From Bacillota bacterium (lineage in GTDB: Bacteria; Bacillota; Clostridia; Christensenellales; DTU072), in assembly GCA_023394875.1 (NCBI GenBank), contig JAEXAB010000001.1:320588-384587 (forward strand): a DNA stretch of 64,000 nt. The letters run 5' to 3'. Below are positions 12,749 to 51,800 of this stretch, piece by piece; position 1 is the first letter of the stretch; the number at the start of each line of letters is the position of its first letter. The notes beneath the pieces are model-generated. The model was not told the origin of the DNA and made no database searches. It worked only from the letters and a program-made list of their open reading frames with translations. The translations under genes were made by a program, and so were the position numbers.

Positions 12749-12783
12749 ATATAATTAAGCTATATTTTTATTGTTAATATTTT

Positions 12784-13218
12784 TTAGGTATAGCAAGTAC
12801 GGTTGATTACATTTTGCCAAGGGGCAAAAAGAGTGGTCTCCACCGCTACATTGATTTTTTCTTTATTAAGTTTTTTCAAAAAGGAAATGAGGGCATCGGG
12901 GTTTTGCAGCATTGGCTCGCCGCCGCTAAGCGTTACCCCGCCGCCTGTGGAGAAATAATACTTTTTATCCTTTATTACCGTGTCAAAAATTTCTTGAACG
13001 GTATACTTTTTTTCGCCTATATCCAAAGAGGCGTCAAGCCCCTCGGGATTTTGGCACCAAAGACACCTCAGTCCACAGCCCTTGAAAAAAACCGTAGTTC
13101 TTATCCCGGGACCGTCGTGGACGCAGGTTCTTTGAATCTTAAATACTTTTAACTCGTAATTTTTCCCTAATTCTTGCTTGCTTTTTACCTCTCCGCTAGC
13201 GTCCTTATCATTTAACAT
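12784..13218 (-). CDS. short (144-aa) PflA-type glycyl-radical-enzyme activase-like protein, apparently lacking the C-terminal ~100 residues (possible pseudogene)
   Basis: It has VHDGPGIRTTVFFKGCGLRCLWCQNPE (CX3CX2C) and GGGVTLSGGEP. The ORF ends right after ...VAVETTLFAPWQNV, where full-length activases such as the 308-aa one at 9701 continue for about 100 aa. No GRE partner gene is adjacent. Confidence 0.55.
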   Translation of the reverse strand: MLNDKDASGEVKSKQELGKNYELKVFKIQRTCVHDGPGIRTTVFFKGCGLRCLWCQNPEGLDASLDIGEKKYTVQEIFDTVIKDKKYYFSTGGGVTLSGGEPMLQNPDALISFLKKLNKEKINVAVETTLFAPWQNVINRTCYT

Positions 13219-13278
13219 AATTATCTCCTTGAGCTAGAAAACTCCTCGCGATAATAATATATTATTTACAGCACAAAT

Positions 13279-27800: not shown

Positions 27801-30800
27801 TAAATCAACCTTCCAGATTATTTGAGTCTTCTTCAGGTCAAGTACCGTCTTGTTGGTAACTTCTCCGGTTATAGGATCGACTATGGTTTCTATCTTCTCT
27901 ACTCCGTCAAAACCAACGTTTATAAATCTACCTAAGTCTTCCATAGTAATGGTGCTTAAATCGCTACCGGATACGCTCTTTGATTCCACGCTCTTAGCTA
28001 CTCTTCTTTCCACTGACCTACTGATACTCAAGCTCTTGCGTGAATACTCGTTATACCATTTATCCCAAGTGCGGGCTTGTAAGCTGGTGTTGGATTCTCC
28101 GAAATTAGCTGTTCTTACTTCCTCGAATACTTCTTTCAACGCGTCTACTGAAATCTTATTGTTCTCAACTTTGACGTTGCTGTTATCTGCAATCAGTTTT
28201 TCATAAGCTAAAGACTTAGCCGCGGTGATGCTAATCGTGGTGTAGGTAAGTTTTGCTTCTAGCAGTACGGTATCAAGATACAATACCGTATTGTTGTTGT
28301 AGGTATCCTTAGCGGTATCGCTGTACTTATCGTACCATACGTCCCAAGCTCTGGCTTTGTTGTTGTCTTTATTTTTGAGAATTGCCGCAAGCTCTAATTT
28401 TTCGAACTTAGTTAGATTGTTATAAACAGCGTCATAAGCCTTCTCTTTTGCGTTATTAAGAGAATATCTAATAGACAGATTGTTGAGCATAATTTCTGTC
28501 AACATCAAGTCCATATCCAGCTTGCTATAGCCGTTTTGTCCGATGGATGCATAAATCGTGGTATCCAAACTGCGGTTGTAACTCATATAAGGAATACTGT
28601 AGCTAAAGCCGGTACCATTTATGGCAATAACTCCGTTCGCTTCAAACTTGCCGGTCATCTGGTTGTAAGTTGCGTATGCCTTATTAGCTTGAGTATATTG
28701 TCCAAGAACGGCTTTTTCATAGTATCCGCTGGTGTATACAACGTAGATTTCTTCACTTAGACCCAATCTGTTGATATAAGTATCGTTAATGGTATCGATA
28801 GGACTTAAATCGCTACCGGTGTCATAAGGAGTAATGACCTTGTTGTTTTCGATATAGACCTTGGTAGCTCCGTTATAGAAGTAGCTTGCGCCGCTCTGAA
28901 TGTCGCTGGAAAGTATCTTTATTAGAATCTTGACGGTCTGAACGTAGCCCGTACCATCGGTTATATCGTAGCTTATAGCATAGTCTTCTGCCTTGGTGCT
29001 AAGGGTCTTATAGTCGTTTAAGGTCTTGCCGTTAAGTTTTAGGAACTTTAAGCTACCCTCGATAATCTCCCAATCCTCGACAATGTCGCCGCATTGTACC
29101 GTTACTCTGTCAAAGGAAGTAATACCCTTTACTGTTGCAAGCGGGTTGTTGTTATACAGAGGATTAATTGTCAACATTCCGTGATAGCCTTGCGGCACGT
29201 TAGAATCATAAACTATTCCGCCAACGGTGTTTTCCACTTCGCTTTCCACTTTTACAAGCTCGTAATTCTTAATGGTAAGCGGTATCTTGACGTCGGTGAA
29301 CTCGGTATTGGACGATAGTTCTTTACCCTCGCTGTCATAGCCGAAGGAACGGAAGCTTAAATCAATATAGGGCTGTTCGTCGGCAAACGGACTATTGTAT
29401 TTCATAGAGGTAAAGCGTCTTATGGAATTAACGGTCTGATAATCCAAACTCCACTTCAAATCATTGAATATATAAGTCTTTTGTCTGACGTTGCCTTGAT
29501 TGTCGGTATTTGTATAGTTGTAATTGAATACCAAAGGTAGGGACGCTAAGAACTCTTCGGCGTCAAAGGCTCTGGGATTGATTACGATATTGCTTATTTT
29601 GTCAATAATCTGCGCTTTGGCTTGATTTACGTCAATTTCAAACGGCTCGATTACTACTCTTACAGTAGAGCATACCGCATTGCCGATATATCCTTGCAGA
29701 TAAACGGTTTGTCCGTTCGTGCCTTTCGCGCTGGAACCTAAAGCGTCGATATTCCAGGTTATCTTCATACCTTGAGTACCCTTGGAAGAACCGTCGGTAA
29801 AGGTAGCGAAATATCTGTTCGGCAATACGTCTATTATGGAAACAGTAGAATCTACGTTCCTTCTTACTCCGATAAAGCCATCGGAATATGCCCAGGTTCC
29901 GCCCTCTACGGTAAAGTCGGTAAGGTCAAACGGGTCATGGAATATTATCCTTGTCGGTAAGGTGCGGATTTCTTTGGTCCAAACAGCCATAACGGGCTCT
30001 ATAGAAATATGCCAGAACTCTCCGTTAAAGGTGGTGTCGGATACCTGACGGATATCCATACCGTTAAGGTCGATATCTACTTCCTGATAAATATCCTCTT
30101 TGGGATTCTTATTGTTGTCATAGATAAATATTCTGTCGTAAACAACCTTATCGCCGGTAATAGGATGCAAATAATAGGTATCGCTTATCGCATAGGATTG
30201 GTAATTGGACTTAGCGATAAACTCTTCCATAAACTTCTTAGCGTTAATATCTTCCACACCCGCTGAAACAATTTGTCTGGTTTGGATATCACAGCTCTTT
30301 ATTTCGTAAGTAGCGGTAGGATCTGTCTTGTAGGTATATGATCTCTTAGTGACGACATCTGATTCCACTCTTTCTTCGTAGTACATTCTTTCCATTACTT
30401 CGCCGTTTGAGTTGGTGGTCATCTCGTATTCCTGTCCACTGGTCTTGGACGTTTCGAACTCAGGAAGATTCAACTCTTCACGGTTGGAAGAAACGTTGTG
30501 GTAATAAAGCTGAACGCCTCTGTTCCTGTATTCATTGGGGTCTTCGTCGGACATCAATCCCTTCATGTTTATGGTATATGCGTTTTCTTTTACAACGGAA
30601 TAGAAGGATCCTATTCTGCCGCTCTTCTTCCAATAAGCATAATCCCAATCGCCTTGCTGCATTGCGCTGTAAGACGGCATCTCGTTTTCTTCGCGCAGAG
30701 CAATTTTTTCGCTGTTCTCGCTAAAGCTTGAGCCGTTGATAAACAGGCTTATTCTGTCGATATATCCGCTTTCGGAATCGCTGTTTAAGGTAATCTTCGC

Positions 30801-33800
30801 ATACACGCTCAAGTCATATTTCTTGGCTTCGCGGTATAAAGTACGGCTATAAGTGGTGCCGTCTTCTAACGTTACCGTAGCTGTAGAGGACAAAGTTTGG
30901 TCGGTTAGCAAGTTCTGATAAGGTTTCAGCGGGCTAGACGGTAAATCCATAGTGGAGAAGATGCTATAGCTTACTTGGAAAGGCAATACGTGCGCAATCA
31001 GTAAGGAGGCTTCTTCCAGTACGTTTCCTACCTGCTGTCCTACAGTCTTTAGTATTCCACCCAACAAAGGTATGATTGAGAAGGTTGTCGGGCTGTAAAC
31101 CAATAAAGCGATTAGGTCGTTTACACCTATTCTTTCGCCCAACAGGTTAACCGCTAAATCCTTTAAGTTGGACAGAGCAAATTCCTGCAACAGATAATGT
31201 ACAAGTCCTGCTCCCTCTTTAGCTAGAGCGCTTTGAGCCGCCTGCATAAAGGCTCCCTTTTCTTGATAGATATAGTTATATATCTTTATATCGTCTTCTT
31301 CGTTATATCTGCCGCGGTAGCGGTTGGTAAACTTGCTGAGCAGTTCTCCTTCGCCCTTTTCTTCAATTTCGTTTTCGGGATATTGAGTAAGGTCAAAGTC
31401 ACTTTCTTTGGTGTTTGCGCCAAGACTTATATCGGCAGCAGTCACCGTCTGTCCCATAGTAACGCCGGTAATACCCAGCATTCCGAAGAACAGATTCTGA
31501 ACGTTCAACAACAGATTGGTAATCATATTGGAGTCTATCCAGGCTTCTATATAAGTGTAAGTGTTGTATCTGTCGGCAACACGGCTACCTTCATAGATTA
31601 AGTTGCTGGTATCGTCAAGATAGGAATAGTCGTATTGCTGTTCTCCGTTGTCACCGTCGTTATGCGGTTCGCTGTCGATTATGTCTGCGCCTAGACGAAT
31701 GCGGAGTTTTTGTATCATAGCAGCGCTCTCACTTACCGTTTCCGACCAGTGGGTGGGACGCTTAGTAAGATTAATCTCAACATTATAGCTTGCCGCTCTG
31801 TTATCGGAGGCATTGACCGTTTCTGCTACACCCATTGTGGAAGTGGTATAGCTTGCCGATGACGGGTTGCCGACAACGGTGCCGCCCTGGGTAATGTTAA
31901 AGTTTTGATAAACCTTAGAACGGAACTTGAAGATATAATTGCCACCCACTAAGAATTCGGGCGCGGTAAAGCTGAACTTGCCGGCTTCGTCGACGTGAAT
32001 ACTGTAATTTTCGGGCTCTAAATCGTAGAAATCTTTAACGCCGATTGTGTGTCCGTTCAAGGAAACCCAGAATTCGAAGTCATCAACAGAAGGCACGACG
32101 TACTTATTAAGTTCGGTGTCATAATAGCGGATATAACCCATGAAAGTTACGCTTGTTACGTCGGTCTTAGTAAATATAATATCTACCTGCAGCGTGCTTC
32201 CTGCGCTTGCCGAACTAATATAGGTATCAAGTAAGCCTATATCGATGCTTGTTCTCATACCGGCAAAGGTATACACAAAGCCTTCAAACTTATAGCCGCT
32301 TAGCTTACCTGACAAAGAGTGATAGGTCTTTGATATATTGGTGTAATAATCTCTTAGGTCGGTATATTCGTCTACGTTAATAGAGTAATTACCCTTTGTA
32401 GCGGTAGTTAAGCTACTTACCGTACGGTTCAGGCCGCCGTCGACAACTATACTTGCTCCGCCGAAAGCCAATACGTTAGTAAGTTCTGCCATGCTTAAAG
32501 CAGGATTAACCATAAAGTAGGTCTTACCGGTTAAAGTTACCGTCTTCTTTCTATCCGCGTTTGCTTTTGCCAAAACTTGCGAACAGTTAATAGCGGCGCT
32601 TGTCTCTTTGGGCACTATCAAAACGTCGTTTTCGGAATAGGAAGTATAACCTTCTTTATAGATGGTTACCGTGCTTCTGTCGGTAAGAGCGTAGAATAAC
32701 TCTCCGACCTTTCTGTATCTTACGTTGTTGTAAACAAATCCTGCTTCTGCCGTAGGATTGATAGACGGATTATTTGTCAAATATTTCTTTACGCGTTCTA
32801 TATCCTGCTTGCCGGTTATGTGGTCGGTAATGGGCAGTTCTAAGAAATAATAGTAACCGTCTTTGTCGGTGGTTGCCTTATTGACAATACCGCTTCCCGA
32901 AGTAATCTCAACAACGGCGCCCTCAACAGGTAGTCCGTCGGTGTCCTTGATTATTCCGTAGAATCTTCCCGTTTCTCCCGCCGTATCGGTATCGGGGAAC
33001 ATAGTGTCGGGGAAGATAACAATGGTACCAATAGCAATACCTTTACTGATAAAGCCGTCTATATCGCCCTGCAAGAAGCTCTTGACGTCTAACGTTATAC
33101 CCAAAATGGTAACGGTAATTGACATACCCAAAGTTATTACCAAGGTATGGTTTTCTACGTGGACGGAAATATTGCCTTGCTTGTAAGAAGGCGTCTTTAT
33201 TGCCGCGTCTATGACGTTATCCATAGACTTATTGACTTCCAGTTTTCCACGGGCATATCTGTTTCTGAAGAATTTGGCTTCGTTGGTATCGTCTTCAAAA
33301 ATAGCCGTAGCGCCGCTGCTTATATTGGAAATCAGTTTGTAACCGGTTTGAATGATTTGCCACCAGCCAACGGGGTTGCCCATAGCGGCGGTTGCAATAT
33401 TGGATACAATCTGCGCAATCTTTATTATTTTTACTATCTGAATAATACCTTGGGCTACAGACTCTGCTCCGTCAAAGCCGTCGTCTTCGTCGGCATAGTT
33501 ATTAGGTCCGGTTTTGTGAACTGCGGGATATTTTGTAAATACGTCTTTTCTTGTCCAATAATCGGTACGTTTTTCTACGTAGAGTGTAAGGTCGTCAAGG
33601 AATATGCCGTCTAATACACTGTTAACCAGGTTGGCCATATTCATCGATATACCCTTGGAGCTTAGGATAAGACCGTTTACTCCGCCGTAGTTATTAAGAC
33701 TTTCGGGCAAGGCAATTATGTCGGTTAAGTCTTTATCTCTGCCGCCTGCTGCCTCTCCAACGCCGTCGTTTATTTTTATCTTTAATCCTCTTTCGGGGAT

Positions 33801-36800
33801 AGAAAGACCTAGTCTGTTGCCTTGAGAATCTACCTTAACGCTTAAACTGAGGTTGTTAAGTCCCTCATAAGTGTTCATGCTTAGGCTTATCTTTTCAAAA
33901 GCAGGTATATCCATACCAAGTAAGAGCTTGAATACTCCGGCATTGGGATTAATGGTTATTCCCTTATTGCCTAAAAGTACGTTAATGGTAGCCGCGCTCT
34001 TCTTGCCGCCGGGCGAAGTGGTGTTGCCGCCAGTATTTCCGATACCGACAGCTTTTGCCAAAGCGTTAAGCTCTTTATTATACTCATCGTCGCTCATGGG
34101 GAATGCTTCTCTGATTTCCGACAACCCTTCTTCTATGATTTCGATTACTTCTTCATCGGTCATTTTGCCGAATCTTCCGGCTAAGTTGTCGCTTACTAAG
34201 GAAGCTTTAAGTTCTGCCAAGCTTGATTCTTTGGTTACTTCTTCTTCATAGGAAATCTTTCTATGAGAAACAAGCTGCAAAGTCTTGCCTTCCGCGGTAT
34301 CGAAATTGAGCATATCGGAAAGCAACGCGCTTACGTCAATACCACTTGAGCCGGAGAATTGAGAAATTATATCAATTCCACCAAGTAGTTTACTCAAAAT
34401 ACTGCCAAGGTCAATACCGTTTAATGAGGTCTTGAAGAGCCCTAAGGTGCTTAAATCAACGTACACTATTTTGTTTACGTAGTACACTGCGAGCATAATG
34501 TCGTCGTTATAGTAAATTTCCAACACTAATATAGAATTGTTGTAGTTTACTAAGTCAATGGCTATGTCGAAGTTTAGGGTAAACGTCATCATAGTGTCTT
34601 GCATGTCAAAGTTAACGGAGTTTTCTTCTAATTCAAGAAGTTTTTCTAAGAATTCTTCCAAATCTTCCACGACTTCGCTCTTTGTGCCGTCGGGCTTTAA
34701 GGTTTGCAAGGTTATATCCAGTTGCAGACTTAGGTGCAGGTTCTTAATCTGGTCAATGCTTGTGCATTCTTCGGCGTCATAGTCGTTTACTATGGTCATA
34801 TCAATAACCGAGGATAGATTGTTCGCCTTGACAAGGTGGGAGAAGCTCTTTCTAATGTTGTAGCGGATGGAGAATTGCTTATTTTCGTCCATGACAAGCT
34901 GTATGCCCGATACTTCGGAAATACCGTCGCCGTCACTGTCTACACGACCTATCTTGAGATAGCTGAACATAGGAAGGTTCATAATAGCGGCAGGCAACGT
35001 GCCTTTCTTCAATATCTCTTCTCTTTCTTCATCGGACAGAGGTCCGCCGTTTTCCTCTTCGGCTTTTTCAAGGGCGCTTCTTGTCAAAATCGTGTCTAAG
35101 TTGCCCAGTAGCGCCATTAACAAGCCGCCGGTTATTGCTATGCTTACTTCTTCGTAATCATAGATAAACAGCAGCATATTCTGACCGAATTCCATATCGG
35201 CTATGGTGTTGTAGCGTAAAGCTCTCTCTTCGGCTTCGCTGATGTTGTTGGATATACCCGATGCAGCGTTCTGCGGCTGTATCGTTTCTTCTTCCTCAGG
35301 CTTAAAGCCGCTTGTTAGATCGGCAAGGAGACCTTTTACAAGACCGCCAAGGTCAATCCCCGACAGACTAAGTAAGGAGTATCCCAAGCCTCTTAAATCG
35401 ATATATACCGTTCCTCCGCCCGAACTTCCCACAAATGCGATACTAAGTATTCTCTTTGTAATGTTTCCGTTGCCGTCGCCGTAGCCAACGTCCAGTTCCA
35501 ATCTTAGTCTGCCGACATCGTTAAAGTCGATATAGGTACGCAAAGCGAAAGCTATCTCTATATTGAGACTGTCTTCGCTGCTTAGTATATTGAGTCCTAG
35601 TCCTCTTATTATGCTGTTGGATAATTGCGACATCTCAAGTAAAGTATTGAAGTCGTCATTAATAAGTAGGGAGCTGTTTACTTCTGCCACCCAAACGTAA
35701 TCGGCTATATTTTGATAGTTGGCAAACTTCGTGTTAATGGACTCACCGAAGAAGTTACTCTTTTGTCCGAAGCTGATGTTAACGTTAGCTATGCTAAACG
35801 AATAGTTAATCTTAGAGTCGTTTATTACGTTGCCGTCTTTGTCCTTAATGGACGCATCCACAGGCACGGTTATACTTAAGCTGTTGTTGATAAAGTCAAT
35901 AGCTATCTGAATGTTACCGAATTCGTCAAAGTTGAAATTAAACAACGCCGACATTAATGCTTGAATAATAGACGCCGACAACTTGATACCTAAAGTACCT
36001 TTACCAAAGGTAATACTTTCTACAATCTTACCCCAGTCAAGGTTGGAGAATATACTGTCTCCGCCCTCATTAGGTTGATCTTGTTCTTCTTCGGCGTATA
36101 ATAAGCGGCTATACAGATAAGAGCTGTAGTTAGCCCCGTCTATATCGTAAACGGTATCCGATTTGAAAATATCAAAAAACAGCTGTACAAGGTTAATTCC
36201 TAAGAAGTCGTATCCCACTTTGGGGGTAAGCATAAGTTTATCGTGATCAGAGTCTCCGCTGTCTACATAAATCTTCGGATCAAGAACGCCGTCTCCCTCA
36301 CCGTCATGGTTGAGAAGTCCGCCCACAAAGTAGATATTGGCAATATTGCTTCCGTTTAGATTATACATTCTGATACTAAAGTCAAAGGCAAATTGCTCTA
36401 TGTCAACGTCTAAAGCTATATCGATTCTTATTAATCCTTTTGCGTTGCGCAAGAATCTTAATTGGAAGTAAGTGTCCATTTCTTGCACGTCGAATAATTT
36501 GCTCCAGTCAAGAACGGTTTTTAGAACGTCGCTTTCCATATAAATACTTAGTGAAGCGGTAAAGCGCGCGCCGATAATTTCCGTCAATACGCCTAAAAGG
36601 TCGGCGCCCTCTTCTATATTGGTGCCCAGTTCGTAGAAACCGTCAAAGAAGCCGTTTTCATATTTACCCATAACGTCGTCATATAAGGTATTGAACGTTG
36701 CTTTATTGGTACTAATTAGAGTATCGTTAAGCAAGGTAAGATTGACGTCATAACCTACCGTTCCGGTATCTTCGGGGGTGTTTTTATGCAAATTAAGGTT

Positions 36801-39800
36801 CAAGGAGAAGTCGTCGCCGTATTCAATGCCCACCAAGCCTGATGTAAGAACCAGGTTAAGAAGGTCTTTCATTTCGCCGGTCAGGCTGTCTTTCCCCACG
36901 AATACTTTTACTATTTCAACCAACATATCGATGGTAATAATCAAAGCCGTTTCTTTGCTGCTTATCCTTATCAAAGCTTCGATTGCCTCGCCAAGAGTGC
37001 TGTCGGCGTTCTTAACTACCGAATAAAACTGTTCGATAGGAGTCATGGCGTTTTCCGCTTCTTCATCGGAATAGCCGTTATACGCTTTCATAATAAAGGT
37101 ATTGAGAGCCGCCATTTCCTCATCGGGATTAGCTCCGAACAGACCAAGCAGAACTCCGCTCAAGTCAACGGGTACCGCAACGCTTAATTTACTGTCAAAT
37201 ATCTCGGCTTGTCCGTAAATAACACCGCCGACAATCCAAATATGCAGAATAACTTGTTCAAACCTAATGTTTTCACCGTTGACATCATGCTCTATTATAT
37301 AGTACGTAAGCATCAGTTCGCCCACTATGGAGTTCTTGACGTCATTGGCGTTTTCAGAGAACAGCGCTGCAAAATTGACTCCCACTTGTCCTTGAATTGT
37401 GACGTAAATCATACTGCTTTCCATAAAGCTGATATCAAGGTCCAAATCAATGGGCAGACTGATTAGGTCTAATATATCAGTTATATTCAGATCACCTTGA
37501 TTGTAGCTAAAGGAAAACGATGCGTTGATGTTTATACGTAAAGTCAAATCGGAGTATTCGGTATATTCCGACTTCTCTTCGTCTGTCAAAACGTCTTTGA
37601 TACTGCTTACAGTTTCTCCGTTTTCGTTGACGTAATTGGACTTGATATCAACCAGCAAGCCAGAATCTTTACCGACTATGCCTATACCTAGGGCAAACCT
37701 GGCGCGGTTGTCTTTTCTTGCCATTGCTTCATCATAAAGCATGGTAAAGGCTCTTTGAGCAATAATACCGCTGTTGGTTACGCTAACCAGTTGCTCAATG
37801 GACGCCGCTTCTTCCAAACGTAGATATTCGATTAGGTATTGGCTCTTTTCCACAAAGCTGAGCATTTCCAGTATTTCTTCTGCGCTATAACCTTGTCCTA
37901 AGTTGGCTTTTAAGGTCAATTTTTCGGCTACTTGCGGATACAGAGAAATATAATCGGCAAAGTATTTGTTCCATATTGGCAAAGTCAAAGCGTTTTGGGT
38001 GTTGGCTAGTACATTGACGGCAATTACTATTCCGTCATACAGCTCAACGCTGGCGTTACTTAAAGTAACGTTGTTATTCTTGATATAATCAATCACCAAC
38101 AGTAAAGCTTCGGCTTTTAGTTTGGCTGTTGAGGTATTAAGAGTAGCTATATAGCTAAGCAAAACGGTTTCGTCGCTGTCGTTAAGGTTGATTGATGCCA
38201 CTAACGCGTCAAAGTCTATTGCCAGCGCGTTGGCGTAGGCTGTGGATGCTTGAATGTAATAAATACTACCGCCTAAGCTGTAAGTGTTGAATATAGCGCG
38301 GAAAGCGGAATTTATACCGGTTACCGAATAATTACCGTTGAAATATGTCAATATCATATCGCGCATTCTTTGATAGTCTTCGGTGCGGCCGTTGGTTAGG
38401 GACAATTGTGCGGAGTTGCTGACGATGTCGGCAAGGTCTCTACTCAAAGTCAAGATATTATTGTAAGACAGTTCGGAGAACTGGTCGAATAAACCAAGCT
38501 CGCTGATATATTCCATAAAGTAGATGCTTACCACCTCTTTATAGCTTGTCCAGACGTTGTTTAGTATATTCTTTAGTGCTACGCTTATAAGAATATTCTC
38601 TTTTTCAAAATTGATTGTTGCTACGTTGTAGCTTAATACCACGATTGCGGCAAACAATTCTCTCTTGCTGCTATTGCTAATAACGCCCGAACCGACTTCT
38701 TTTGCTGCGGTAATAAGGTTAGATATACTGCGGCAGTAATTAACGGTATCTTTATACGCGTTGGGTACGGCAAATCCGCCTTGAGCTATCATTAGGTCTA
38801 TTGCGTTTACAACTGTCGTAAGGTCATAACCGCCGCTTAATTCTTCTCCGCCGAATTCTTCGGTATAAATTTCGTATAAGTAATCGCGCAGAGCTAAAGC
38901 AAAGCTGTCATAACCGCTTACTATTGTACTGAGTAAATTAATGACGTCTGACTGACCGTTATAAATAATGTTATCAGCCAAAGCGTCTACTATGGTATCC
39001 ATATTATAAGCAAGTATCTCATAATATCTTAGGTCATAGTTATTGATCCATTCATTAAAGTTACTTATCTTAGGCGTATCGGATCCTACGTAAGCTTGCT
39101 TAAACTGCTCGCGGTAAGCGGCAGCCATCTTGACAATACCGCTTGCGGTAAGGTTGGTTATCAACAGTTCTTTTAGGGCAAGCATCGATGCTTCTTCCAT
39201 TATAGGATTAGCAAGCAACGCTTGTTTAAGGGCATAATATTCGCCGCTGTTGTTATCAACGCCTTCAATGAAGTCCTCAATTAGTCCTATCTTATAGACT
39301 TTGCCGTCTTTGAACAGTTCTTTGGCGGTGTTAAGGAACAACGCTTTTGACTGGGACATATTTAAGGCGTGAGCCGAACTCAAATTGAATTCATAGGTCT
39401 CGCATTTTACTATCAGTTCATACCACAACTGGCGGTAATCTCTTCTGGATACTTCGGCGCTCAACATCAGTATGCTTTCCATACGGCTGTAAATATAGTA
39501 TATAGCCTGATAATAGGTTTTTCCGCCGGCGTTTAACTGATCAAACACGTTAGAGCTGTTTATCGACGTCAAAGCCTCTGTGATGTTCTTTAACTTGGTC
39601 AGTTTGGCAAATATTTGAGTATCCAACAAACTGCGGAAATTGTTGCAGTAATCGGGTATTAATTCTATACCGTAAGTAGCTATCGACAAATTATTAATTC
39701 TGATATTTTCGGCGGTCTTTTCGGGAGACGGATCGCTGTAATTATTTGCAGCCTGATAAACTGCCTTGATATAAGAAAGCAGTTTGGCGGCATAACCGTA

Positions 39801-42800
39801 AGCAATATCAATATCGGTAACCAGACTGATGTCATCGGCAATCGGACAATAGCCAAGGCTTGCCTCTATGGTAGCTAAAGCTTGTCCGTATTCTTCGGAA
39901 TATTGGGGATTGCCGTTTTCATCGTCTTCTATTCTGTATTCTACCTGCTCAATACTGTCAAGAAGGTTCTTAGCGGCAGTAAGGTCGCTTAACATATCGA
40001 AAAGCGCCTGTCTCTCGTTTTCCACAATGACAGGTTCTAAGATATCCGACCATAATACAATAGTGTCGTTAATTAGGGCTATTACGTTGTTATAATAGTT
40101 ATCCGACAGATTGATAGAGCTTAAATTCGTGGGCAGAACGCTGAAGATATTTTCGCTGACCGTGCCGAAATTAGCATTCAAAATGCTTTCCAATCTGTCG
40201 TTATAGCCGTTAGTATTATAGAACCAAGCATGGTATAAATTATAGCTTGCGGCATCGTAATACTCTTCCCAAAGGGTGGAGTTTGCGCTGCGTTTTAGTA
40301 GATTATCCAGTAAGAACGCTTTGTTCTCTGCATTTAACTTCTTCTCCAGTTCTAAAATAACGTTAGCCGAAGCGTAAGTATTGATATCTGTTATTATTTG
40401 ACTTTCGTCAATAATGTCTTCATACAGTGTTTCGGCGGCTTCTCTGAACTCATAGATAAAGTCAAGATAGGTGTCGATATTGCTGATAACGTATTCTTTG
40501 GACTTAGCAACAAGGCTGGTTAAGGTGCTTTCGATAACGCTGTTAGCCGAAGAAATAACGGTGTTGTTTATTATTTCTTGTATGTCGCTGTAGAGTCTTT
40601 CGAACAAGGACGACCTCAAAATATTGTTGAGCTCTTCTATTCTTTCCAAAGTGGAGCTATAACGCATCCATTTATCCCACGCGTACTTCTTGATATACTG
40701 CTCGTTGGAAAGATTATTAAACAGCTTGTTAATTCTGTTGACCGCGGCTGTTACTTCGGCTACGTTGGTATTATCTCCGGTATAACCTGACATAGAAGAC
40801 GTCCAAACTGCTTTTGTCAAATTGCTGTAATTGCCGGATACAAAGTTATTAAACAGTCCGTTTAGTAAGGTATATTCGGCGCCGACAAGGCTCTTTAATA
40901 AGTAACCGAATGCGATAACTTCTTTTATTGTTTCGTCATAACTTCCGTAATAAGCTTCGACATAGTTGTTTGCGTCAACAACGGCGGCTGTCAAGCCCTT
41001 TATTTCCACATACTGATTGTAAGCAAGGTATGCGTTATAGAAGCTGTAACTTCTGATGTCGGCAAGATACCCGTCGATTATACTTTGATTGAGTCCGGTG
41101 ATATTCATATCGACAACTTGCGTTCTTACCAATACTGCCTTGATCGCGGCATCTATGGCTTTTCTGTTTTGATTGTCAAGTTCTTGTTTCGTCTCATCGA
41201 ACGTGTCGATAACGTCGGAAATTATCTTCAAAGCGGTAGATATGGAGATATTGTGTTCCAGACTTACTCCCTTGTAGATTTCTATAAAGGCTTCTATAGC
41301 CGCCATAGGTACGTTGGAGTAGTCGCCGTTCTTTATTCCGTTAATTACGCTAATTTTGCCATAACTTTGTATATCAAAACGTTGCAGCACGTAAGCCAAT
41401 GCTCTGACTGCCTTATAGCTGTCTGCAAGATAACCGTCTGCACCATAATTGTTGCTGTTTGTTATCGGGTTGCCGATATTGTTTACATTGTTGGCATAAG
41501 TACGCGCCGTAGTGATATAACCTTGCAATACCGCATCTGTTGTATCTAGAGCAAGCACAACCCAAACCATTACTAGCTTGAACATATCGTTTGCCGTCCA
41601 GTTAAGTTCTTCCTTGGGATCAGCTTCTTGAGTAGCTCCGTTTAAGATATTAAACTCAGCAGACGGCAAGTTGATTTCTTCATAAATGCTCTCCATTTCT
41701 AAGTTTATTAGCTCATTAAAGCTTATTTCTTTTAGGGAGAAGTCCGAACTATAGCTGTTGATATATGCCGTAGCCTCAGCAAAGTCTTGTAACAAAGTTA
41801 CTATCTTAGAATAATAACTGTTAATAAGGCTGTTATATGCTACGCTTAGGTCATAATCCGAAGAAGCGCGGGTTACGCCTACCAAAATATTGCTGTAATC
41901 TATCTTTGTTTCGTCAAAGAGGCTCTTAACAATCGCAGCTTTTAATGCTCTGACTGTTAACGTTGCGTCGCCGGTATATTTACTAGCCGCCGTCATCAAC
42001 GCCGAAATGTTGTTGAAAATAAGGTCGTAAGTAAATCCGCCTTCCTGATATGCGCTCATCGACACGCCCTTAGAAAGGTTATAGGTCTGCAAGGTTTTAG
42101 AGGTTACGGTAAGGATATTACCCAACGTTACTACGTCGACTCTGTTTAATCCCAACAGTACCAGTTTTTCATCGCTGTAGAACTCCGATTTAGCAAGGTT
42201 GTTCCAAACAACGTATTTTAGAATATTTACGTCGTCTTCAATAAGAGCGTTATTAATTGTGTTGGAACCAAGTAGCAAATCTTGCTTAAACTTGTCGTAG
42301 GCGTAAGCCTTGATTTCCAGTTCGGTTGCTTTGTTATACTTAGCTCTTGCAAAACTTTCTGCCGAAAGCATCAATGCTTTTTGATAATAATCGGTGGTTT
42401 CTAAGTAGTATTTATCAAACGCCAAAGCTTTCTGATAGACGAACAGCTCATCATACTTAGCGGTGTAAACCTTGATAGCTCCCGCCGAATCTGCGGTATA
42501 GTAAATTTGAGCGTACAGATACTTGAACCAGGCGCTCTGTCTTGCGTAGAGGTTGCGGAACAGATTGGTTACCAAATAGGTATAGGATACCGAATCGCTA
42601 CCGCTACCAAACAAACTTCTGATAGAATCAATCTTCTTCTTATAAGCGTTGCCGTTATAGCCCTCAGCCATAATCGCGCCTATGTCTCTTCCTGCAGCTA
42701 CGCACGCGTCAAACGCTAAAGCCTTGTTGCCGTGTAAAGAAATGAGAACGTTTAGTTCATTCTTAACTTCTAAATCGGTTACCGCGGCATATGCTTTATC

Positions 42801-45800
42801 CCATTCCATTTCTTTTAGGTAATCGGAATAGAACTGTTCTAATTTTATATTCTTTTGGTTAATATCGCGCACGCTATCGGCAGAATAATCAAAGCCGTAA
42901 GTAGAAGCTAGCGCATCGTTATAGTAGCATTCTATAGCCACATAATCATATAAGAACAATTTTGCTTGTATTTCGGTAAATTCGGTAAGTCTAGCTCTGA
43001 TTTTACTCAAAATTGCCGGCGCGTCCGTTCCCGTATCGGTTAGCCATGTATTTACTCTTGAGAGTTTTTGCGCGTCCGATAGGTTATAGTTGTCATAAAG
43101 CAAAGTATTTTCTAGCAATACCGCCCATACGTTGTCGTAAATAATGTAGGTAGCCGAAGTATTGTTCTGATACCAATAAACAAACTCATTGTTTAGAAGT
43201 TCGCTCATAAGTTTGCTGTCGGCGTCGTCTATTTCCTTACTTGGTAAATCCAATTGTATTAATATAGTAATACTTGGGTCAATGGACAGGCTTAAAGCAG
43301 GGGTGGTAACCGAATTAATAACTTCTTCCACTACCACGATTGTTTCTGCCATATCTACGCCCATAAAGAATTTAACTAAAGAGAATATAGCCCCTTGAGT
43401 CAATTGAATTGCAATACCTTTAATAACGTCGCCTATAATAGCTAAGGTACCTACGCCCCTTGTGGCTCCTTCGATGTTCTGCGGACGGGCGCCGTTGTAG
43501 AATTGTTCTATACTGTTAATTCTTTCTCTGGTCTCAGCGGCTTGCTCGGAGTCTCCTCCCAAAAGTGTAGAAAGTAATCCCATTACGTTGGTAATCTTAA
43601 CTTTACCTACGTAGAAGTTTTCGTTATTTGACAAGCCCGAAGCGTCGATATAAAGGTCGCCGCGGATATAGGATATACCGGCAATCTGCGTAATTTCTCC
43701 GGTTGTCTTATTCATAACGTTTAGATAAATCTTCGCCTGCAAGTCTTCCAGTATAGATTTAATATTAACGGTTAGGTTAATATCTACGTATATGATGGAA
43801 TCAACGTCGTTAATAAGTTCCAATATAGGAGCTATTTGTCTTGTAAAGCCTTGGGCTGCCAAATCGATATTGGCAATAGATAAGACGTAATAAAGCAGTT
43901 CTTCAAGATTATAGATACCTTTCTCATCGGTAATGTTTATCATTATTTTAGTCTTGAAGTAAACGGTATCCAGACGGTTTAATTCTCTGTATTCTTCTAC
44001 GCCGCTAACCGTTGTGCCCGACGACTCAAAACCTACATATAAGCCGTTTAGTTTTATTGTTATACCTAATATAGGTCTCAAATCAGCGGAGCCTGTATTT
44101 AGCGGATCATCGCTCATTGCTACCTGCAAACCGAAAGCAAAGCTCTTGGAGTTTTCGTTTACCTGCACGCCTTTTAGGTATATTTGCAATGCGGCGTCGT
44201 TAAACAAATCAAAACCGCCGAAACCGAACATTTTTAATAGCGAAGAAATTGCGGCTTTCTTTACAATCAGATAGAAGCCGTCACTGGTTATGTTGGCAGA
44301 CAGACCTAATTTGATATTGTTATTAGCGGCAAAGCGTAAATCTTTGGCTATGCTTTCCCAACTTGCTGCCGACGCGCTATTAGCCGCGCCAAACAAGGAA
44401 TCGGCAATGTTGGCGATATAAATCTTGTCGCTGTTGAGGTTGCTTAGGTTGATATACAGATTCTTATTATAGTAAGTTATTACCGCCCATTCTTTGTTCT
44501 GGTCAAAATACATGCCCTCTGCCGTGCGGTATATCCTAAGTCCTACTCTTAGGGTAGAACCTGACTTTAAGTGGTCAAGGAAGTTGGAATCTTCACCGTT
44601 ACCAAAGTCTAGGTCAGCTAAAATATCCAAAGCAATGGTTATTTTGTGAGTATTGTTTAAGGTAAGCAATACTTCGGCAAGACTGGTAATAAGTCCGGTC
44701 AGACTCTTTTCCAGTAGGGTATAAACAGGGTCTTTCGATAAATCTTTGCCCTCTGTAGCTCCCAAATCGAACTCCAGATAAACAGTAGTTCTAATAGAAA
44801 TCTTGGGTAAAGAGTTTTCTACTACCACGTAGCCGACAGGGTCGCCGTTTTCATCTTTTTCCAGGCTGTTTTCGTCAAAAGTGATATATTTTTCTTGGTC
44901 TAAGTCAAGCTCTATGGTATGGATACTTAGGTTAAGGCTTATGCCTCTGCCTGTGGAAATACCCTTGTTGTTTACGCTCTCAAAGCGTATTCCTACCCTT
45001 ATTAAGTCTCTGTCGGCGTCGGTAAATATGCCGGGAACTTCTCCACCATAGGTAGCTACGCTGAATATATCCAAAGTAATACTAGGTTCGCCCACCTGCG
45101 TAATCATACTCTTGATATTGTCCATGCCGCCTAAATTAAGGAAGCCTAATACTGCGTAAATGGCGTTGGCGGCTATTTGAATAGTTAGACCGCTCTTTAG
45201 TAAGTCAAGGTTAACTTGAGCGTTTTCGCTGTCGGCTGCGTTGGCAATCTTAGCAGCCATTGCCGCGGCTACTATAACTTTGGAAACAGAGCCTTCTTCT
45301 TCTACGTCAATGCCCAAAGGATATGCGCCGTTTGAAGCAAAGACGGTACCAAACAAGCCTCTAATATACTCAACGGCGTTCTTTATATATATTCTTTGGA
45401 TATTAAACCTTTCGGCGTTGAGATAAATATAGTTGGTTTCTGCTCCTGTAACAGGGTCCACTTCGGAACCAAGGACAAATTGCAGAACAATGTCGTTAAC
45501 ACCGTTTCTTTGTTTGATATTGCCGTTGCTATCCAAAGCATAAAGGGTTATGGATAGGTCGGTTGTGCTTAGGTTGCCGTCGAATAAGTCAAATAAATTG
45601 AACCTTGCTTCCATAATTATGCGGTAATAATTGCTTATATCGCTCAGTATGGCAAGTATGGGCGCAAGATCAATTACTTGTCCTTGCAATTCAAGATTAA
45701 AGTTCATACCGCTAAGCAGTGTATTAACTAAAGTTGTGAAATCGTATTCGGTGTTTTCTTCCAAATCCCAACCGAAATCAATTTCCAGTGCGGCGTAAAC

Positions 45801-48800
45801 GTATCCGAAATTCTTGTCGAATATCGCAAACTCACCGTTTGAGTCTTTTTGAACTTCTCTTAGATAATCGGCAATGGTTATTGCCTCTCTCTTCTGAATG
45901 ATATTATGATTTTCGTCCTCATAATCTACCCAAACTTTCTTGGTAAGTTGATTATCTTCAAATTTGATGCCGGCTTCGCTGAATTTCGCGCTTATATATA
46001 GGTTAGCAACTTCGGCGTCTACTGCGATTATGGAATTATCATACAGTAAGCCAAGTCTTATTTGACCTTGCTCATGCACCGCTTCTACTATTAATTGCGG
46101 CAAGTTCGAATATGCGTTGTCATAGTATTCGTTAAGTTCATCTAAGTTAGCATCGTCAACGTCCACTTTGTACCAAATTTGAGCGCCGTCTTCGGTAAGC
46201 ACGTCACTTAGTTGCACCATAATTTTCTTAGATGCGTCTCTTCTGGGGTTGCCTTCGCTGTCTGTTAATATGGTATAGCTTTGCTGCTTGCGTATAATAA
46301 ACTTATTCTCGCCGTTTAGTACAGCGGTCATTTCTTCCTTATAATAGGTCCAAGCGGCAAAATAATACTCGTTGTAAGTCAACTCTTTCTTAGCGTTGGC
46401 TACATAGGTTATTAAGCTGTTGTTTAGATACGCTTCGGCTTTTTCGTTGTTAAAACCGTCCGATGCCACCAGCATATCCCAAGCGTATGCCTTCCAAATA
46501 GTGGTTACCGTTGAGTTATAGCTTCTATAAACGGTGCCTTCAAAGATAAATATATCTTCGCTCATCATAAACTGACCGTTAGAATCTTTAGCTATATTAT
46601 TTATAGCGCTCATCTTGTCGGTTATATTACGGTATTCACCCTCGATATTAGCTTTGATTTCCAACCAGGCTTTGCTCTTTGCATTAAGGTCCAAGCTGCC
46701 GTTTGCTATAAAATGTCTTTGATAAATAGCCTCATATTCGGCTTTGTCGTCTTCCGACCACATATAGTTCTTTGTAAAATACTCAAATGCAGTCTTCTGT
46801 ATATACAATAGACGGTTAGCCGCAGGTATATTTGGCATAGAAGCTACTGCGCTGGTAGCGGCCAGATAAACGTCGTTAAGGGCTGTTATCTTTGTATATA
46901 CGTCTTCCAAATATAATTCTAAAGCCTTGCCTTTGGCATAATAGAGAGAAAATTCAAGCGCCATTGCCGAAGTTTCGGCTCCGATAGCGTCATCGTCTTC
47001 CTGTCTCTCCTTGAGGTCTTTTACTTCGCTTGCAACTAATTCTCCGTAGATGTCCCAAGCTTGAATTTTCTTTTCTTTGGTTGTTCCGGGAGCGGTTTGC
47101 GTTTCCAAAATTATACCGGCACGGGTATATTCCTCATCGGAGAGGTTTTCCAAAAGGGCGTCCCACGCGCGCGATTTATCATTATAATTTTCTTCCAATA
47201 TCTCGCCCATCAGAGTTAGAATAACGTCTTTCTTGTATTGCTCCTCTTTAAGTTCTCCTACCACTATATCTTCCACAAACTGCTGGAAAGCGCGGTTGGT
47301 CAAACTCTTGACGTCATTGAACGCCTCATTAAGCAATTTCACTAGAACGTTGGCTGTAGCGGTAACGGTAAAGCCGTAAGTATTGCCGATAACACCGCTG
47401 ATAAAGTCTTCTAACGGAGTTTCGTTGATCGTTCCGGGTGCGGCAGAACTTAGACCGGGATTTTTATTTAATTCTAAATTCTTATTGACAGCGTACTTTA
47501 AGTACAACGTATATTGCATGTAATCATAATCGGTCGCCATAGAGGTGTTGACTACGGGAGAAGCCGATTCGGGAACTTCCTCTTCGGTGCCGCCGCCGAA
47601 CAGCTTGCCTAAGTTATCCATAACTTCTTTTGCGGTTTTCTGGAAATCAACTATCTTTATTCTTCCCACGTTGAACGCCGACAAATCAATGTAAAGGGTA
47701 AGGAACTCATCTATACCGTCGGTCTCTTTAACAAGATAAATGCCGATAATTAATGCTTCGGAATAGTAGCCGTTTTCAAACGTGGTGTTATACAGCTCTA
47801 AATAAGCCTCAATGCCCGACGCGCTAAGTAGTCCTAAAATGTCTAGTGACAGTTCGGGATTTTCTTCTTTGGCTAAATTGTACGCATTGAGTGTGGCTAC
47901 CAACTGCATAATGTTGGCTTTTGCTTCCAACCTGAAAGTAACGTTGGCATAAACCGATTGGATTACGTTAAGTATAACGTCTAAAGCAAAGCTGTCGTCT
48001 TTTAATAAAGCGCGTAGCAAATCGCCAAAATTGATACTTGTCATATCCATTTCGGTTTCCGCAGAATCTTCGCCTTCGGCGCCAAGATTTAATTGACCTT
48101 CAAAATATAGTTTGAAATCAGACGTCCAGTTTTTGTCAATAACGGTGTAATAATCAACGTACTTGCCGTTTACTAATATCTTCTCTCTGATTGACAAGGA
48201 CAGCGGGTCGGTAAGAGAAAGCTTAGGATATTCTATGCTCAAGCCTAAGTTAAACAAACCGTCAAGCTCCAGGTCTAGTCCAACTAAGTTACTGCCCAGC
48301 GCCTCAATGGTAAGATTGGGGGTATATCTGTTGAAATAACCCTCTATGTCGATACCTAGCGTTGCCATCAAGGAATAAAGAGCGGCGCCGGTAACTTGCA
48401 ATAAAATAACCGAAGTGTTTGCTCCCTCTCTCTGTGTGCTGATACTAAGTATTATTTCCTTAGCAATAGCGCTTGCCGCGGCATTGTTGAGTCTTGCGTT
48501 AGTATCGGGAGCAGCGGGGGAGGGCTGTTGATTATTTCCGCCGCCTGCAATTAAGTCTCCCAAATTAATGCCGAACGCTTCGCTCAAAGCAATAATAATT
48601 GCGCTTACGTTATGAAGCTTTATAGGCTCTACACCTAAGAACTTCAAAGAAATGTATACGTCGGCAACACCGTCGGCGCCTACTACAACGTACAAGGACA
48701 ATACGTTGCCAAGATAATAATCTCCGGCAAGACCGTATATCTCATCCCAGAATTTTGCGTTTCTCTCGGCTTCGGAAAGGTCGGAATAGAAAGTAAAGAA

Positions 48801-51800
48801 CTCTCCTTGCTCAAGTTCTACCATTTTCTGATAGCAGTAGAAACCGTCGTTAATTATAAGTTCATCTATATATTGAGTGGTGCCGGGAGTGGGATTTTCT
48901 TGAAGCAGTCTTGTCTTCATTGCCTTCCAAGCCAGGTCTTTATTGTATTTGAACTCTGCAAGTATATTATTCATATACTCTCTTCTGGGAGCTAAGCCGT
49001 TATATAGTGTTTCTTGATTGTACTTAGAAGTCAGATTGAGGTACAATTCTACATTCTTGAGTTCTTTTAAGGTATTCAAATTGACGTTCGCGCTGATATT
49101 AAAATAAGTTGCCTGAGAGAATACGTCATCTAAAGCAACGTCCAATTGCAAGCCAATTTCGGGGTCGCGGTTATTGAGCCAATAGTTGGCAAACATCTTG
49201 ACTGCGTAGTCAAAGTTCCAGTTACTGGCTACGTTTGACAATTCGAATGTTGCTTTACCTCCCCAGCTTAAACCTACGGTGGAAAATTCTTCCACTTCCG
49301 CCCAGTCAACGTTGTCGATATCCTCAGCGTATTCAATAACGGTATCCCTAAACGATACGTCGATATTATGTAAAGTAAGGCCCATTTCCGTTCTGTGGTC
49401 TTCAAAATTGGTCACTCTACCCATTTCGTCAAGATAAACAACGGCTGATACACCCAAATCTCCGGTAAGATTGAGATTAAGCCTTACTCCGAAGTCAATA
49501 GCGCTCAATTCATCTTCTAAATCAAGTCCGGCTAAGGCAAAAACAGTTATGAAAGAAGACTTAGTTAAAGCCACGCCGATATTGCTTTCAAGGAACAGCA
49601 AGTCAAGATAGGTGCGCATGTCGATGCCTTCTTCGGCGGCATTCGCTGCGGCAGCCCCTAAAGCGCGGTTATAAGAGGTGTTCAACGTAGCGGCAGAAGC
49701 CGGCGCGTTTCCCGGTTCTTCCACGTCGATGCCCACAAACTGACGTAACGCTTTGGTAAGCGATACAAGGAATGTGGAGTCGAAAATTTCGGTTATTCCT
49801 GTTACAACGCTACTTACGTTACGCAATACAACGTTGCCGATATTGAAAATATTGGTAGAGACATAAACTTCTCCGGTTAATTTGGAAGCGTTATCTTCTA
49901 CGCCGCTACCGTCGTAAATAACCGTTAAAACCTTCTTTACTCCATCAGGACCGAGTTTGTTCTGGGTCATTGTGATTTTGAACTTACTCTTGTAGAAATT
50001 GCTGAAAACAAGCCAAGCTTCAACTTTGATATTGAGGCTGTCGTTCATTTCTCCAAAGAACTGCAAAAGAATGCTTGTTCCCATATCGTTAAGGTCGATA
50101 AGAACGGCGCCTTTAACAAGTAAATCCCAGGCAACAGCCGAAAAGATAACATCCCCGGGTTGTGCATTGGCATAGTCATCACGTTCATCTTTCTTGTCTT
50201 TTATTTCTTTTTCTGCGGCTACGAAACGCTCATCCATTTCCCTTCTTTGAGCATCGGTTAAATTATCTTTCTTATAATATTCCGACCACGCTAAGGCTTT
50301 AAGAGCATTTTCGGTCATTGACGTACCTTTGTTTGCATCAACTATCTGTTGATAGTGGGCGTTCAAATCGGCTTGCCTGAATTCGGAATTGCTAAAGAGT
50401 GAGCTGATAGCGTCGGTAAGGTCATAATCGTTACGATTGGTTGTGTTACCCTCTCCCAATCTGTTTCTAATAAACAAAGACGCTTCCACCGCTACATAAA
50501 TTGCATCGGGCACGCCGTCCGTTGCTCCTTCGGGCGGATAGGTGTTGTTACTGGACACTCTGTAATTAGGTCTCTTAGCAGGGTCTACGCTGACGCTTAT
50601 ATTTCCTACGCTAAGGTCTATTTTGTATACGTTATCCAAGCCTAGTGACAAAGTAATGTCAAGACCGTTATTCATATCCAGTTCCAGATCCAGACTGTCT
50701 ATGGTAACAAAGTCGGAAACTTGGGCAAAGTTGAGCATGGTCAGCACAACTCTTATAGCGACTTCCGATAATTTTACCGATACCTTGCTGTAGCCGTAAA
50801 GGACTTCTAAAGAAACTTCGGTATTATTGACAATAGACGGGCTTGCGTGATTTATTGCATAACCGCTATAATTACCTTCTCTTGGATTAAAGGCGTTTGC
50901 CAATTGCTCCAAAGTAGCGGGAGCATTGGAAACTGCAGACGGATTGTTTATTATATTGCCGTTGGCGTCATAATAAGTAAGCGCGGCGGCATTAATAGGA
51001 TTTATCACCGCGAAACTTGCCATTCTTTGTCTTACGCGATAGTAAGTAACGGCATATAATTCCTGTGTAGTAACGTTTCTGGACGTATATTTGGCGTTGA
51101 CTTCTTTCTCCAGATTTTCGTTAAAAACTTGTTCGTAGCGTATCTGATAATCTTCACTCTCACGAATAGCCGCAGAAGTGGCGTTCTTATATTTGCCTGC
51201 GTATAAGTTATCTTTATCGGCTCTTAGTTCGTCAATTACGCTTAACGCCGTACGGTTTTGCAAAGTCGCATAGGCGGTAGATTTAATGTAAACCGCTCTC
51301 AAATAATTTTTGATTTCCTGAACCGTTAATTCCAGCTCACTTTCCATAAAGGCTTTTTGCTCGCCCAAAATACCTGTTTTATTATAGGTTTTATCCCAAA
51401 TAGTTTCGTATTTGGCAACTAAATCTTTATAATAACCGTAAGCAGCCGACTGGAGTTTGTTAAAGAACAATCTTTCGTCAAATTCATAATCATCGTCATC
51501 GGAAACGCCGCTTTCCAATCTGTCTTTTTGCTCAGCCAGATCATAAACGCTGATTTTCAGGACGTTTCCGTTACCTTGCTGCATGGGATTGATAAAAGCC
51601 ACAAGCACGTTATTGTTATAAATATTAATAACACCGGCATCGGTTATGGAGAATACTCTGGAAGTATTCTTTAACGTCATTTCGTTTTCGTAGTCAGTAA
51701 AATTGAAGTTGTTGTTGACGTTGTTGTAGTTGTACAAGTAAATAAATCCATCATTGCCTACCAGATATTTATAGTTGGTAATGGGATAAGATCTGGAATA

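Follow-up and report, generated by a model that had tools for sequence, protein, structure and literature searches.

A long, most likely all-alpha region set within the beta-rich repeat array of a giant surface-type protein of Clostridia

The window analysed here is a stretch of 64,000 nucleotides from a Bacillota bacterium (GTDB lineage Bacteria; Bacillota; Clostridia; Christensenellales; DTU072; GenBank assembly GCA_023394875.1, contig JAEXAB010000001.1, positions 320,588 to 384,587 of the forward strand), and all nucleotide positions are counted within it. Its minus strand carries an intact open reading frame (ORF) of 11,237 amino acids (aa), called here the giant protein. An original prediction, made from the letters of the window, had described at 37695-43232 a Gly/Pro-poor, Tyr/Trp-rich insertion that splits a repeat array, and from its composition had taken it to be helical. 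This segment of the minus strand is exactly aa 4100-5945 of the giant protein (1,846 aa; hereafter the region). We find that the region is most likely all-alpha and set within a beta-rich array, since hydrophobicity periodicity, the secondary structure of an AlphaFold model and the placement of alignment gaps, three partly independent lines of evidence, agree. The explanation that we prefer, with a probability of about one half, is that it would be a folded helical bundle or irregular solenoid serving as structural spacer or rod of a lipid-anchored surface fibre of this uncultured Clostridia bacterium.

The whole region lies in a single frame (21816-55529), in which the first base of residue a is at 55529-3(a-1). 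This ORF is not an assembly artefact, because an ENA metagenome scaffold of 517 kb carries the same gene, called at 11,232 aa, and its 587-aa neighbour, with which ENA was queried, is present on seven contigs. Few relatives were found. A HMMER search with aa 4100-5299 against 1.84 billion cluster representatives returned two matches, HKL74311.1 (P0001 below), a 5,267-aa partial "hypothetical protein" from a metagenome-assembled genome (MAG) of Clostridia, and a 604-aa fragment. The GTDB genomes gave one locus, L001, from the MAG Clostridia bacterium INTA.CYC.159, one of a series (INTA.CYC) assembled from dairy stabilisation ponds (PMC8929167), and the JGI metagenomes gave one sequence seen twice (L002, the same as L003) with a 9,019-aa open frame. 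The family comparisons were made among the giant protein, L001, L002 and P0001. BLAST alignments with the three relatives are collinear, with identities of 83% for L001 (over aa 1220-9276 of the giant protein), 39-43% for L002 and 30-43% for P0001. In L001 and L002 the homologous frames stay open over 24-27 kb and, against L001, the proportion of nonsynonymous differences (pN) is 0.07-0.17, with that of synonymous ones (pS) about 0.7. The giant gene is real and under purifying selection.

The giant protein would consist of some 16 beta-rich units of ~310 aa strung in a chain, each ending in a conserved terminal motif, followed by a distinct C-terminal part of ~4,000 aa. A hidden Markov model (HMM) built from the unit ends (...h-Y-h-D-L-S-x-L-G...L-x-x-L-L-G-G) and iterated over the protein and its relatives detects 13 copies of the terminal motif in the giant protein and matches all four family proteins. 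Successive copies usually start 270-340 aa apart. Larger gaps measure 698 aa (two units, one motif having gone undetected), 716, 750 and 2,140 aa, the last one separating copies that start at aa 3926 and aa 6066, in agreement with the 2,144-aa gap originally reported; the coordinates and the seven motif strings quoted for the region were likewise all found at the residues given for them. Each of the three large interruptions starts in the first third of a unit, past a conserved h-T-h-x-h...L-L-x-x-h-G-h-D element. They may have expanded at a position of the unit that is permissive and partly helical to begin with, a tentative reading given the poor alignment there. One array unit (aa 6145-6467), modelled with 13 internal paralogues as alignment, reached a predicted local distance difference test (pLDDT) score of 49. 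Its sole confident part is the terminal-motif part, a beta meander with pLDDT 70-85; helix is predicted for the first ~85 residues, at pLDDT 50-60, and a Foldseek search of this model against PDB found no match (best E 0.27, TM score 0.12).

In composition the region stands apart from the array. Gly makes up 3.9% of it vs 8.1% in the array and Pro 0.9% vs 2.0%, while Tyr (7.9% vs 4.3%), Trp (1.0% vs 0.5%) and Ala (9.9% vs 6.9%) are raised. Glu, Lys, Leu and Asn (6.5, 5.0, 10.9 and 8.8%) are in no excess over the array (6.6, 4.6, 12.1 and 8.0%), and only this part of the composition first described had to be dropped. With little Gly and Pro and much Tyr, Leu, Ile and Ala, the region has the opposite of a disordered composition.

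The hydrophobicity power spectrum, computed in 16-residue windows with z scores against 100 shuffles, has a peak in the region at 90-110 degrees (z 5.8, 7.3 and 5.8, with 7.3 at the 100 degrees of an alpha helix) with a deficit at 160-170 degrees. In four array segments the peak is instead of beta type, at 160-180 degrees (z 3-6.5), and there is nothing at 100 degrees. The equivalents of the region in L002 (z 7.6) and P0001 (z 9.1), at 28-31% identity, have the same 100-degree peak, and the array parts of these two proteins reach z 5.5-6.1 at 170-180 degrees. By part, the helical periodicity is strong at aa 4701-5300 (z 6.3) and lower at aa 5301-5945 (z 3.3). A disordered or beta-rich region, the outcome against which the helical prediction had been set, was rejected on composition and alpha periodicity.

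A single-sequence AlphaFold model of aa 4100-5299 was assigned by DSSP 65% helix and 0.7% strand, in 51 helices of 4-43 residues. Furthermore, alignment gaps relative to the distant homologues, which AlphaFold had not seen, favour positions outside the predicted helices (48% vs 35%, p 0.007). The helical nature originally proposed from composition is supported by the periodicity of the region, its replication in two homologues and the helix content of the model. As for a canonical coiled-coil rod of the M-protein type, made of long unbroken heptad-repeat helices with few aromatic residues, the helices predicted here have frequent breaks (in a low-confidence model), Tyr is abundant, and the 100-degree peak cannot distinguish 3.5 from 3.6 residues per turn.

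Such a strong 100-degree periodicity across about 1,200 aa, together with AlphaFold helices that lack confident tertiary packing, would also be expected of amphipathic helices that bind lipid or membrane as those of apolipoproteins or toxin translocation regions do, and that coat or enter a membrane or hydrophobic surface instead of folding as a soluble domain. We consider this very unlikely. Apart from the signal peptide at the N-terminus, no segment of the giant protein has transmembrane hydrophobicity, so that a membrane-spanning role of the region was rejected; the protein is acidic, with a net charge of about -5 per 100 aa (-4.9); no family of this kind is similar to the region; and the low pLDDT of the model is accounted for by the single-sequence input.

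A short motif recurs in the region and elsewhere in the protein. Thirteen copies aligned on their Ala give the consensus K-x-x-A-[WYF]-D-x-[WYF/L]-[Y/L/M]. In the loose form [AE][WYF][DFL], close to how it was first described, it is not enriched (10 vs 7.5 expected), but the tighter A[WYF]DK occurs 3 times against 0.07 expected. All three-residue patterns, whether contiguous or gapped (about 64,000), were also counted in the Gly/Pro-poor regions, and the pattern was therefore not chosen after the fact. The top one was K...WD (6 vs 0.11 expected, p 2e-9), followed by K..AW (p 3e-8), AWD, WDK and WD..Y, and all five are one motif. The fuller form [KR]-x-x-[AST]-[WFY]-[DNE]-x-h-h is found 11 times in the protein, compared with 0.95 in block shuffles, and 10 of these 11 are in Gly/Pro-poor regions. 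At the six key positions of the motif the giant protein agrees with L002 in 62% of residues and with P0001 in 70%, over a background identity of 31% and 25%, respectively, in these regions (p 2e-8 and 2e-13). The motif is real and under selection, although the string HAWFYNT (aa 5100), listed as one of its copies in the original prediction, is not conserved in the distant homologues and was discarded. In the region the copies are grouped at aa 4239-4415, where they lie 30, 61, 37 and 40 aa apart, and one further copy is at aa 4947. The conserved Ala, aromatic and aromatic or hydrophobic residues stand at i, i+1, i+4 and i+5, that is on a single helix face, and would form the buried packing stripe of a helix.

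The same residues might instead be exposed. In this case, already raised in the original prediction, the region would be a ligand- or glycan-binding platform, its Tyr and Trp side chains on the surface and the motif elements acting as repeated sites for a carbohydrate or for a host or partner polymer. The doubled Tyr content, the conservation of the motif aromatics, the probable surface exposure of the protein and the fact that the region is its fastest-evolving part, as would be expected of an interaction surface, all fit this alternative. We hold it to be unlikely, given that the positions of the conserved residues make the pattern of a buried helix face, that there are about six good copies per 1,846 aa with five of them inside 180 aa, and that no carbohydrate-binding or other binding family was detected.

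The spacing of the clustered copies recalls another known architecture, the TPR/Sel1 repeats of Pfam clan CL0020. The region could be a degenerate alpha-solenoid of this type that scaffolds protein-protein interactions, with the A-x-A-W of the motif in the role of TPR helix A. The likeness consists of the 30-61 aa spacing at aa 4239-4415, an A-x-A-W-like helix start with conserved small and aromatic residues, short helices with short loops (in the low-confidence model) and local word matches such as DYYQKALMLS to the EYYQKALELD of consensus TPR. However, the spacings of 30, 61, 37 and 40 aa, to be set beside the 34-44 aa period of tandem TPR-like units, are confined to aa 4242-4410, with no regular period elsewhere (outside aa 4240-4415), and the region has neither a continuous array nor the Gly/Pro turn signature. 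When the region was cut into six ~320-aa tiles and these were run through Pfam hmmscan with E values up to 1, only unrelated sub-threshold matches came up, and no TPR, Sel1 or HEAT. The hhalign comparison of a four-sequence profile of aa 4200-4460 with four copies of consensus TPR aligned 14 columns at a probability of 14%, short of one 34-aa repeat. Membership in TPR/Sel1 was rejected on these profile tests, and a degenerate scaffold of this type is unlikely.

The boundaries of the region map onto each other among the family proteins, and it occupies the same place of the array in all four (1,846, 1,847, 1,882 and 2,250 aa); no family member without it was found among the known relatives. Because of this shared position it appears to be an old part of the family and not a recent or strain-variable insertion, which was the possibility raised originally when a comparison of insertion sizes between homologues was proposed. 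In P0001 the region contains three diverged internal duplicate pairs (E 5e-15 to 9e-11) and an extra ~400 aa, and has grown by internal segmental duplication in this one lineage; the regions of the giant protein and L002 contain no internal duplicates by self-BLAST (E 0.05). It is also the part that evolves fastest, with 28% identity to L002 vs 46-48% for the array, and with a pN against L001 of 0.14 vs 0.07-0.09 (pS of the region is about 0.75, saturated). Only 3 indel residues per 1,846 aa separate it from L001. By these comparisons the region looks fast-evolving yet clearly constrained. It is extremely improbable that there is no meaningful feature here, that is, a drifting, disordered or beta-rich linker with a chance motif. 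This would agree with the lack of enrichment of the loose motif and with the marginal internal similarity, but not with an alpha periodicity present in three lineages, a composition opposite to that of disorder, a motif that is significant after correction and conserved at 62-70%, a preserved length and a pN far below pS.

The original prediction had one helical module type inserted repeatedly into the scaffold, and had the motif marking two smaller insertions as well. In the insertion at aa 2660-3150 the motif is indeed present in four copies, the four strings quoted being located at aa 2787, 2823, 2953 and 3015. The one at aa 1205-1590 has no A[WYF]D match, just one degenerate site (TIWDKTY), and no significant helical periodicity. 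A fourth Gly/Pro-poor region, missed before, was noticed in the C-terminal part at aa 8950-9170 (aa 9001-9200 hold three Gly and no Pro). With aa 2742-3113 it forms the sole pair of insertions with BLAST-level similarity. Otherwise BLAST and Smith-Waterman comparisons among the insertions gave short motif-centred matches alone, and an all-against-all hhalign of 120-aa profile tiles found just motif-centred matches of 16-57 columns, the best one (P 5e-5 over 1,084 pairs) being marginal. What recurs is a short motif-bearing helix or helix pair and no demonstrable domain-sized module, and the repeated-module proposal is not supported beyond this limited sense. Motif-like sites were also seen in short helical stretches of ordinary units, KALAWSEYY at aa 1744-1752 (50274-50300, minus strand) and KDLAWKAMK at aa 2197-2205 (48915-48941, minus strand); a unit of 403 aa instead of the usual ~310 (aa 1933-2335) holds one of them. 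This suggests that they are small versions of the same kind of expansion.

Database searches place the giant protein outside described families. Pfam and NCBIfam gave no match in aa 1-6200 and, over the whole protein, only a sub-threshold CarboxypepD_reg at aa 7525-7567 (32829-32957), and PDB searched by sequence and by profile gave no relative above noise. A word-indexed protein search with three queries (the region, a three-sequence alignment of aa 3900-6200, and aa 5946-6916) came back empty, which has no bearing on rarity because HKL74311.1, 43% identical to aa 5946-6916, sits in that collection; for long queries of ordinary composition the limit of 8,000 candidates in this search appears to hide true relatives.

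The closest known analogues are the staphylococcal Embp and Ebh, surface proteins of ~1 MDa in which the F and FG (FIVAR-GA) repeats fold into bundles of alpha helices (PMC7587433; PMC9302970). The giant protein resembles them in being surface-associated, of ~10,000 aa, from Firmicutes and with a very long all-alpha portion of short helices, for which a long-reach fibre role is plausible. It differs in lacking any sequence relationship, a FIVAR/GA match (neither PF07554 nor PF01468 was found by Pfam in the region) and a regular tandem repeat. The many near-identical tandem repeats of ~126-170 aa that make the Ebh/Embp rod have no counterpart here, only P0001 having diverged duplicate pairs, and its helical part, far from being the main body, interrupts a beta array, as several other stretches do. 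A second comparison is with the 10,000-30,000-aa metagenomic Clostridia proteins of "Giant genes are rare..." (bioRxiv 10.1101/2023.11.21.568195), in which RCC1, Listeria-Bacteroides repeat, YG repeat, dockerin and LRR domains were recognised. Size class, class Clostridia, metagenomic origin and a presumed cell-surface role are shared, whereas here there is no recognisable domain save the sub-threshold one. We place it among the giant surface proteins of Gram-positive type in which a long portion is helical, as a member of a family without described relatives.

The protein starts with a lipoprotein-type signal, MKSNLLKFIILALCIVMLISVAA-C, in which V-A-A-C is aa 26-29. On inspection, the sequence MKSNLLKFIILALCIVMLISVAAC-S fits the lipobox pattern [LVI][ASTVI][GAS]C, and the hydrophobic core of this signal peptide, with a Kyte-Doolittle (KD) value of 2.81, is the sole segment of transmembrane hydrophobicity in the protein. 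No sortase anchor was found at the C-terminus (no LPXTG and no transmembrane segment; it ends ...MTPKTFVLYTYIYIASK). From these features, and from the surface-type neighbours of its gene, the giant protein would be lipid-anchored at its N-terminus and displayed at the surface. Ebh is anchored by a C-terminal membrane segment, and the N-terminal lipobox is one more difference from it. The first ATG of the ORF gives METTLMKSN..., and the public ENA gene call is five residues shorter. The true start is probably Met6 (MKSNLLK..., nucleotide 55514), favoured because the n-region is then more typical for a signal peptide.

Put together, the spacer or rod reading would work as follows. The first third of one unit would hold ~1,850 aa of short amphipathic helices of 10-40 residues, which would pack as bundles or as an irregular alpha-solenoid. 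K-x-x-A-[WYF]-D-x-[WYF]-[Y/L/M] would be a helix with Ala and aromatics on one packing face, presumably buried, and the copies placed every 30-61 aa at aa 4239-4415 can be read as helix-turn-helix hairpins. The region would make a cell-surface fibre longer and contribute to its mechanical properties, and internal segmental duplication would tune the length of the region. Several points weigh against this explanation. At aa 4100-4700, home of most motif copies, the helical periodicity is weak (z 2.5). The AlphaFold model of aa 4100-5299 has a pLDDT of 32.7 and a predicted TM score (pTM) of 0.21, so that there is no confident three-dimensional model and its fold is meaningless; helix content from a model of so low confidence is weak evidence by itself. 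Self-BLAST of the region finds no pair at E <=0.05 and there is no regular internal repeat, unlike known rod proteins, nor did our searches connect it with a known family of helical rods or repeats. Faster evolution than the array fits a spacer and a diversifying binding surface equally, and the spacer function would be argued by analogy alone.

A bolder proposal, which we regard as doubtful, is that the four proteins would define a family, not described before, whose members of more than 11,000 aa form lipid-anchored fibres on the surface of uncultured Clostridia. They would be built from the ~310-aa beta unit and a new aromatic-stripe helical element able to expand, at a permissive site of this unit, into domains of up to 2,250 aa, and the helical expansions would be the functional part instead of passive spacers, for example as repeated polymer-binding sites or as a length ruler. 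Giant bacterial surface proteins are frequent in metagenomes and mostly unannotated, and this one is extreme, with 11,237 residues, no domain above threshold in Pfam, NCBIfam or PDB and two relatives in the HMMER scan. The conserved helical region with its defined motif and the beta units with their defined terminal motif are handles for structural work on such "dark" sequence, and the protein is a clear example of a repeat scaffold that tolerates a very large domain expansion at one site. Alone, the finding neither opens nor settles a major question, but it points structural work at a large unannotated block.

Table 1 Features of the giant protein and of its Gly/Pro-poor region, in order along the protein, with positions in the window
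Feature	Residues (aa)	Position	Strand	Basis or remark
Giant ORF	11,237 in all	21816..55529	-	Intact frame, ENA gene call, open homologous frames, pN/pS
N-terminal signal peptide with putative lipobox (M6-KSNLLKFIILALCIVMLISVAA-C)		55443..55529	-	Read from sequence; KD 2.81
First small insertion, Tyr/Asn-rich	1205-1590	50760..51917	-	First ~130 aa strand-like by eye
Second Gly/Pro-poor insertion	2660-3150	46080..47552	-	Four conserved motif copies (aa 2785, 2821, 2951, 3013); helical z 3.4 at 90 degrees
Terminal motif preceding the region	3926-4008	43506..43754	-	HMM E 3.9e-16
Interrupted unit, N-terminal part	4009-4099	43233..43505	-	Aligns with first third of uninterrupted units
Gly/Pro-poor, Tyr-rich region, predicted all-alpha	4100-5945	37695..43232	-	Composition, periodicity z 7.3, AlphaFold, gap placement, conserved position
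Motif copy KEMEWDKAY	4239-4247	42789..42815	-	Orthologues KEVEWDKVY, KTVAFDSFY, KELAWDRYY
Motif copy KALAFDACV	4269-4277	42699..42725	-	Orthologue alignment
Weaker copy RQSAWFKYL, without Asp	4330-4338	42516..42542	-	Central W in 4/4 relatives (A-W in 3, T-W in P0001)
Motif copy KALAFDKYY	4367-4375	42405..42431	-	Orthologues RAYAWDAFM, KAYAWDAYY
Motif copy KAYAYDKFK	4407-4415	42285..42311	-	K-A-Y-A-[YF]-D-K in 4/4 relatives
Motif copy KKYAWDKWM	4947-4955	40665..40691	-	Orthologues KRSAWGAWY, KRIAWDNAY; hhalign matches aa 9051-9066
Interrupted unit, beta-rich C-terminal part	5946-6065	37335..37694	-	Beta periodicity of aa 5946-7068 z 6.5
Terminal motif following the region	6066-6144	37098..37334	-	HMM E 1.4e-12
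Fourth Gly/Pro-poor region	8950-9170	28020..28682	-	Three conserved copies KEKAYDAVY, KARAWDVWY, ARTWDKWY
Duplicate pairs in P0001	3010-4146 of P0001			3010-3101 with 3549-3640; 3206-3454 with 3904-4146; 3669-3827 with 3838-3989

The C-terminal ~4,000 aa of the giant protein (aa ~7300-11237; 21816-33630, minus strand) are richer in Thr, Gly, Val and Tyr than the repeat array, lack the terminal motif and have a weaker beta periodicity than the array; this part may be the functional "head" of the protein. Two antisense ORFs of ~154 aa each lie within the giant gene on the plus strand (41085-41549 and 33147-33614). The first of them, of 154 aa and inside the region, is probably spurious, the matching place in L001 having no ORF of at least 80 aa. 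Scans of the window for tRNA and Rfam genes found no RNA gene besides one tRNA-Arg(CCT) at 12504-12580 (minus strand), within a ~1.8-kb stretch (11467-13278) that has no ORF of at least 150 aa.

Directly upstream of the giant gene, a 285-aa ORF (55724-56581, minus strand) matches the model of the TTE1925-family mutarotase with E 3e-52 and a score of 178 bits, far below the curated cut-off of 550 bits. Further upstream (56595-59855, minus strand) a neighbour of 1,086 aa has Big_2 domains and a transglutaminase-like core, and is weakly similar to a MAG6410-family lipoprotein. The downstream neighbour (19997-21760, minus strand; 587 aa) has MBG_2 and Listeria-Bacteroides repeat domains. The giant gene and these flanking genes for probable surface proteins may be a surface-protein gene cluster, and past the flanking surface-type genes, further out, there are genes of glycerol metabolism.

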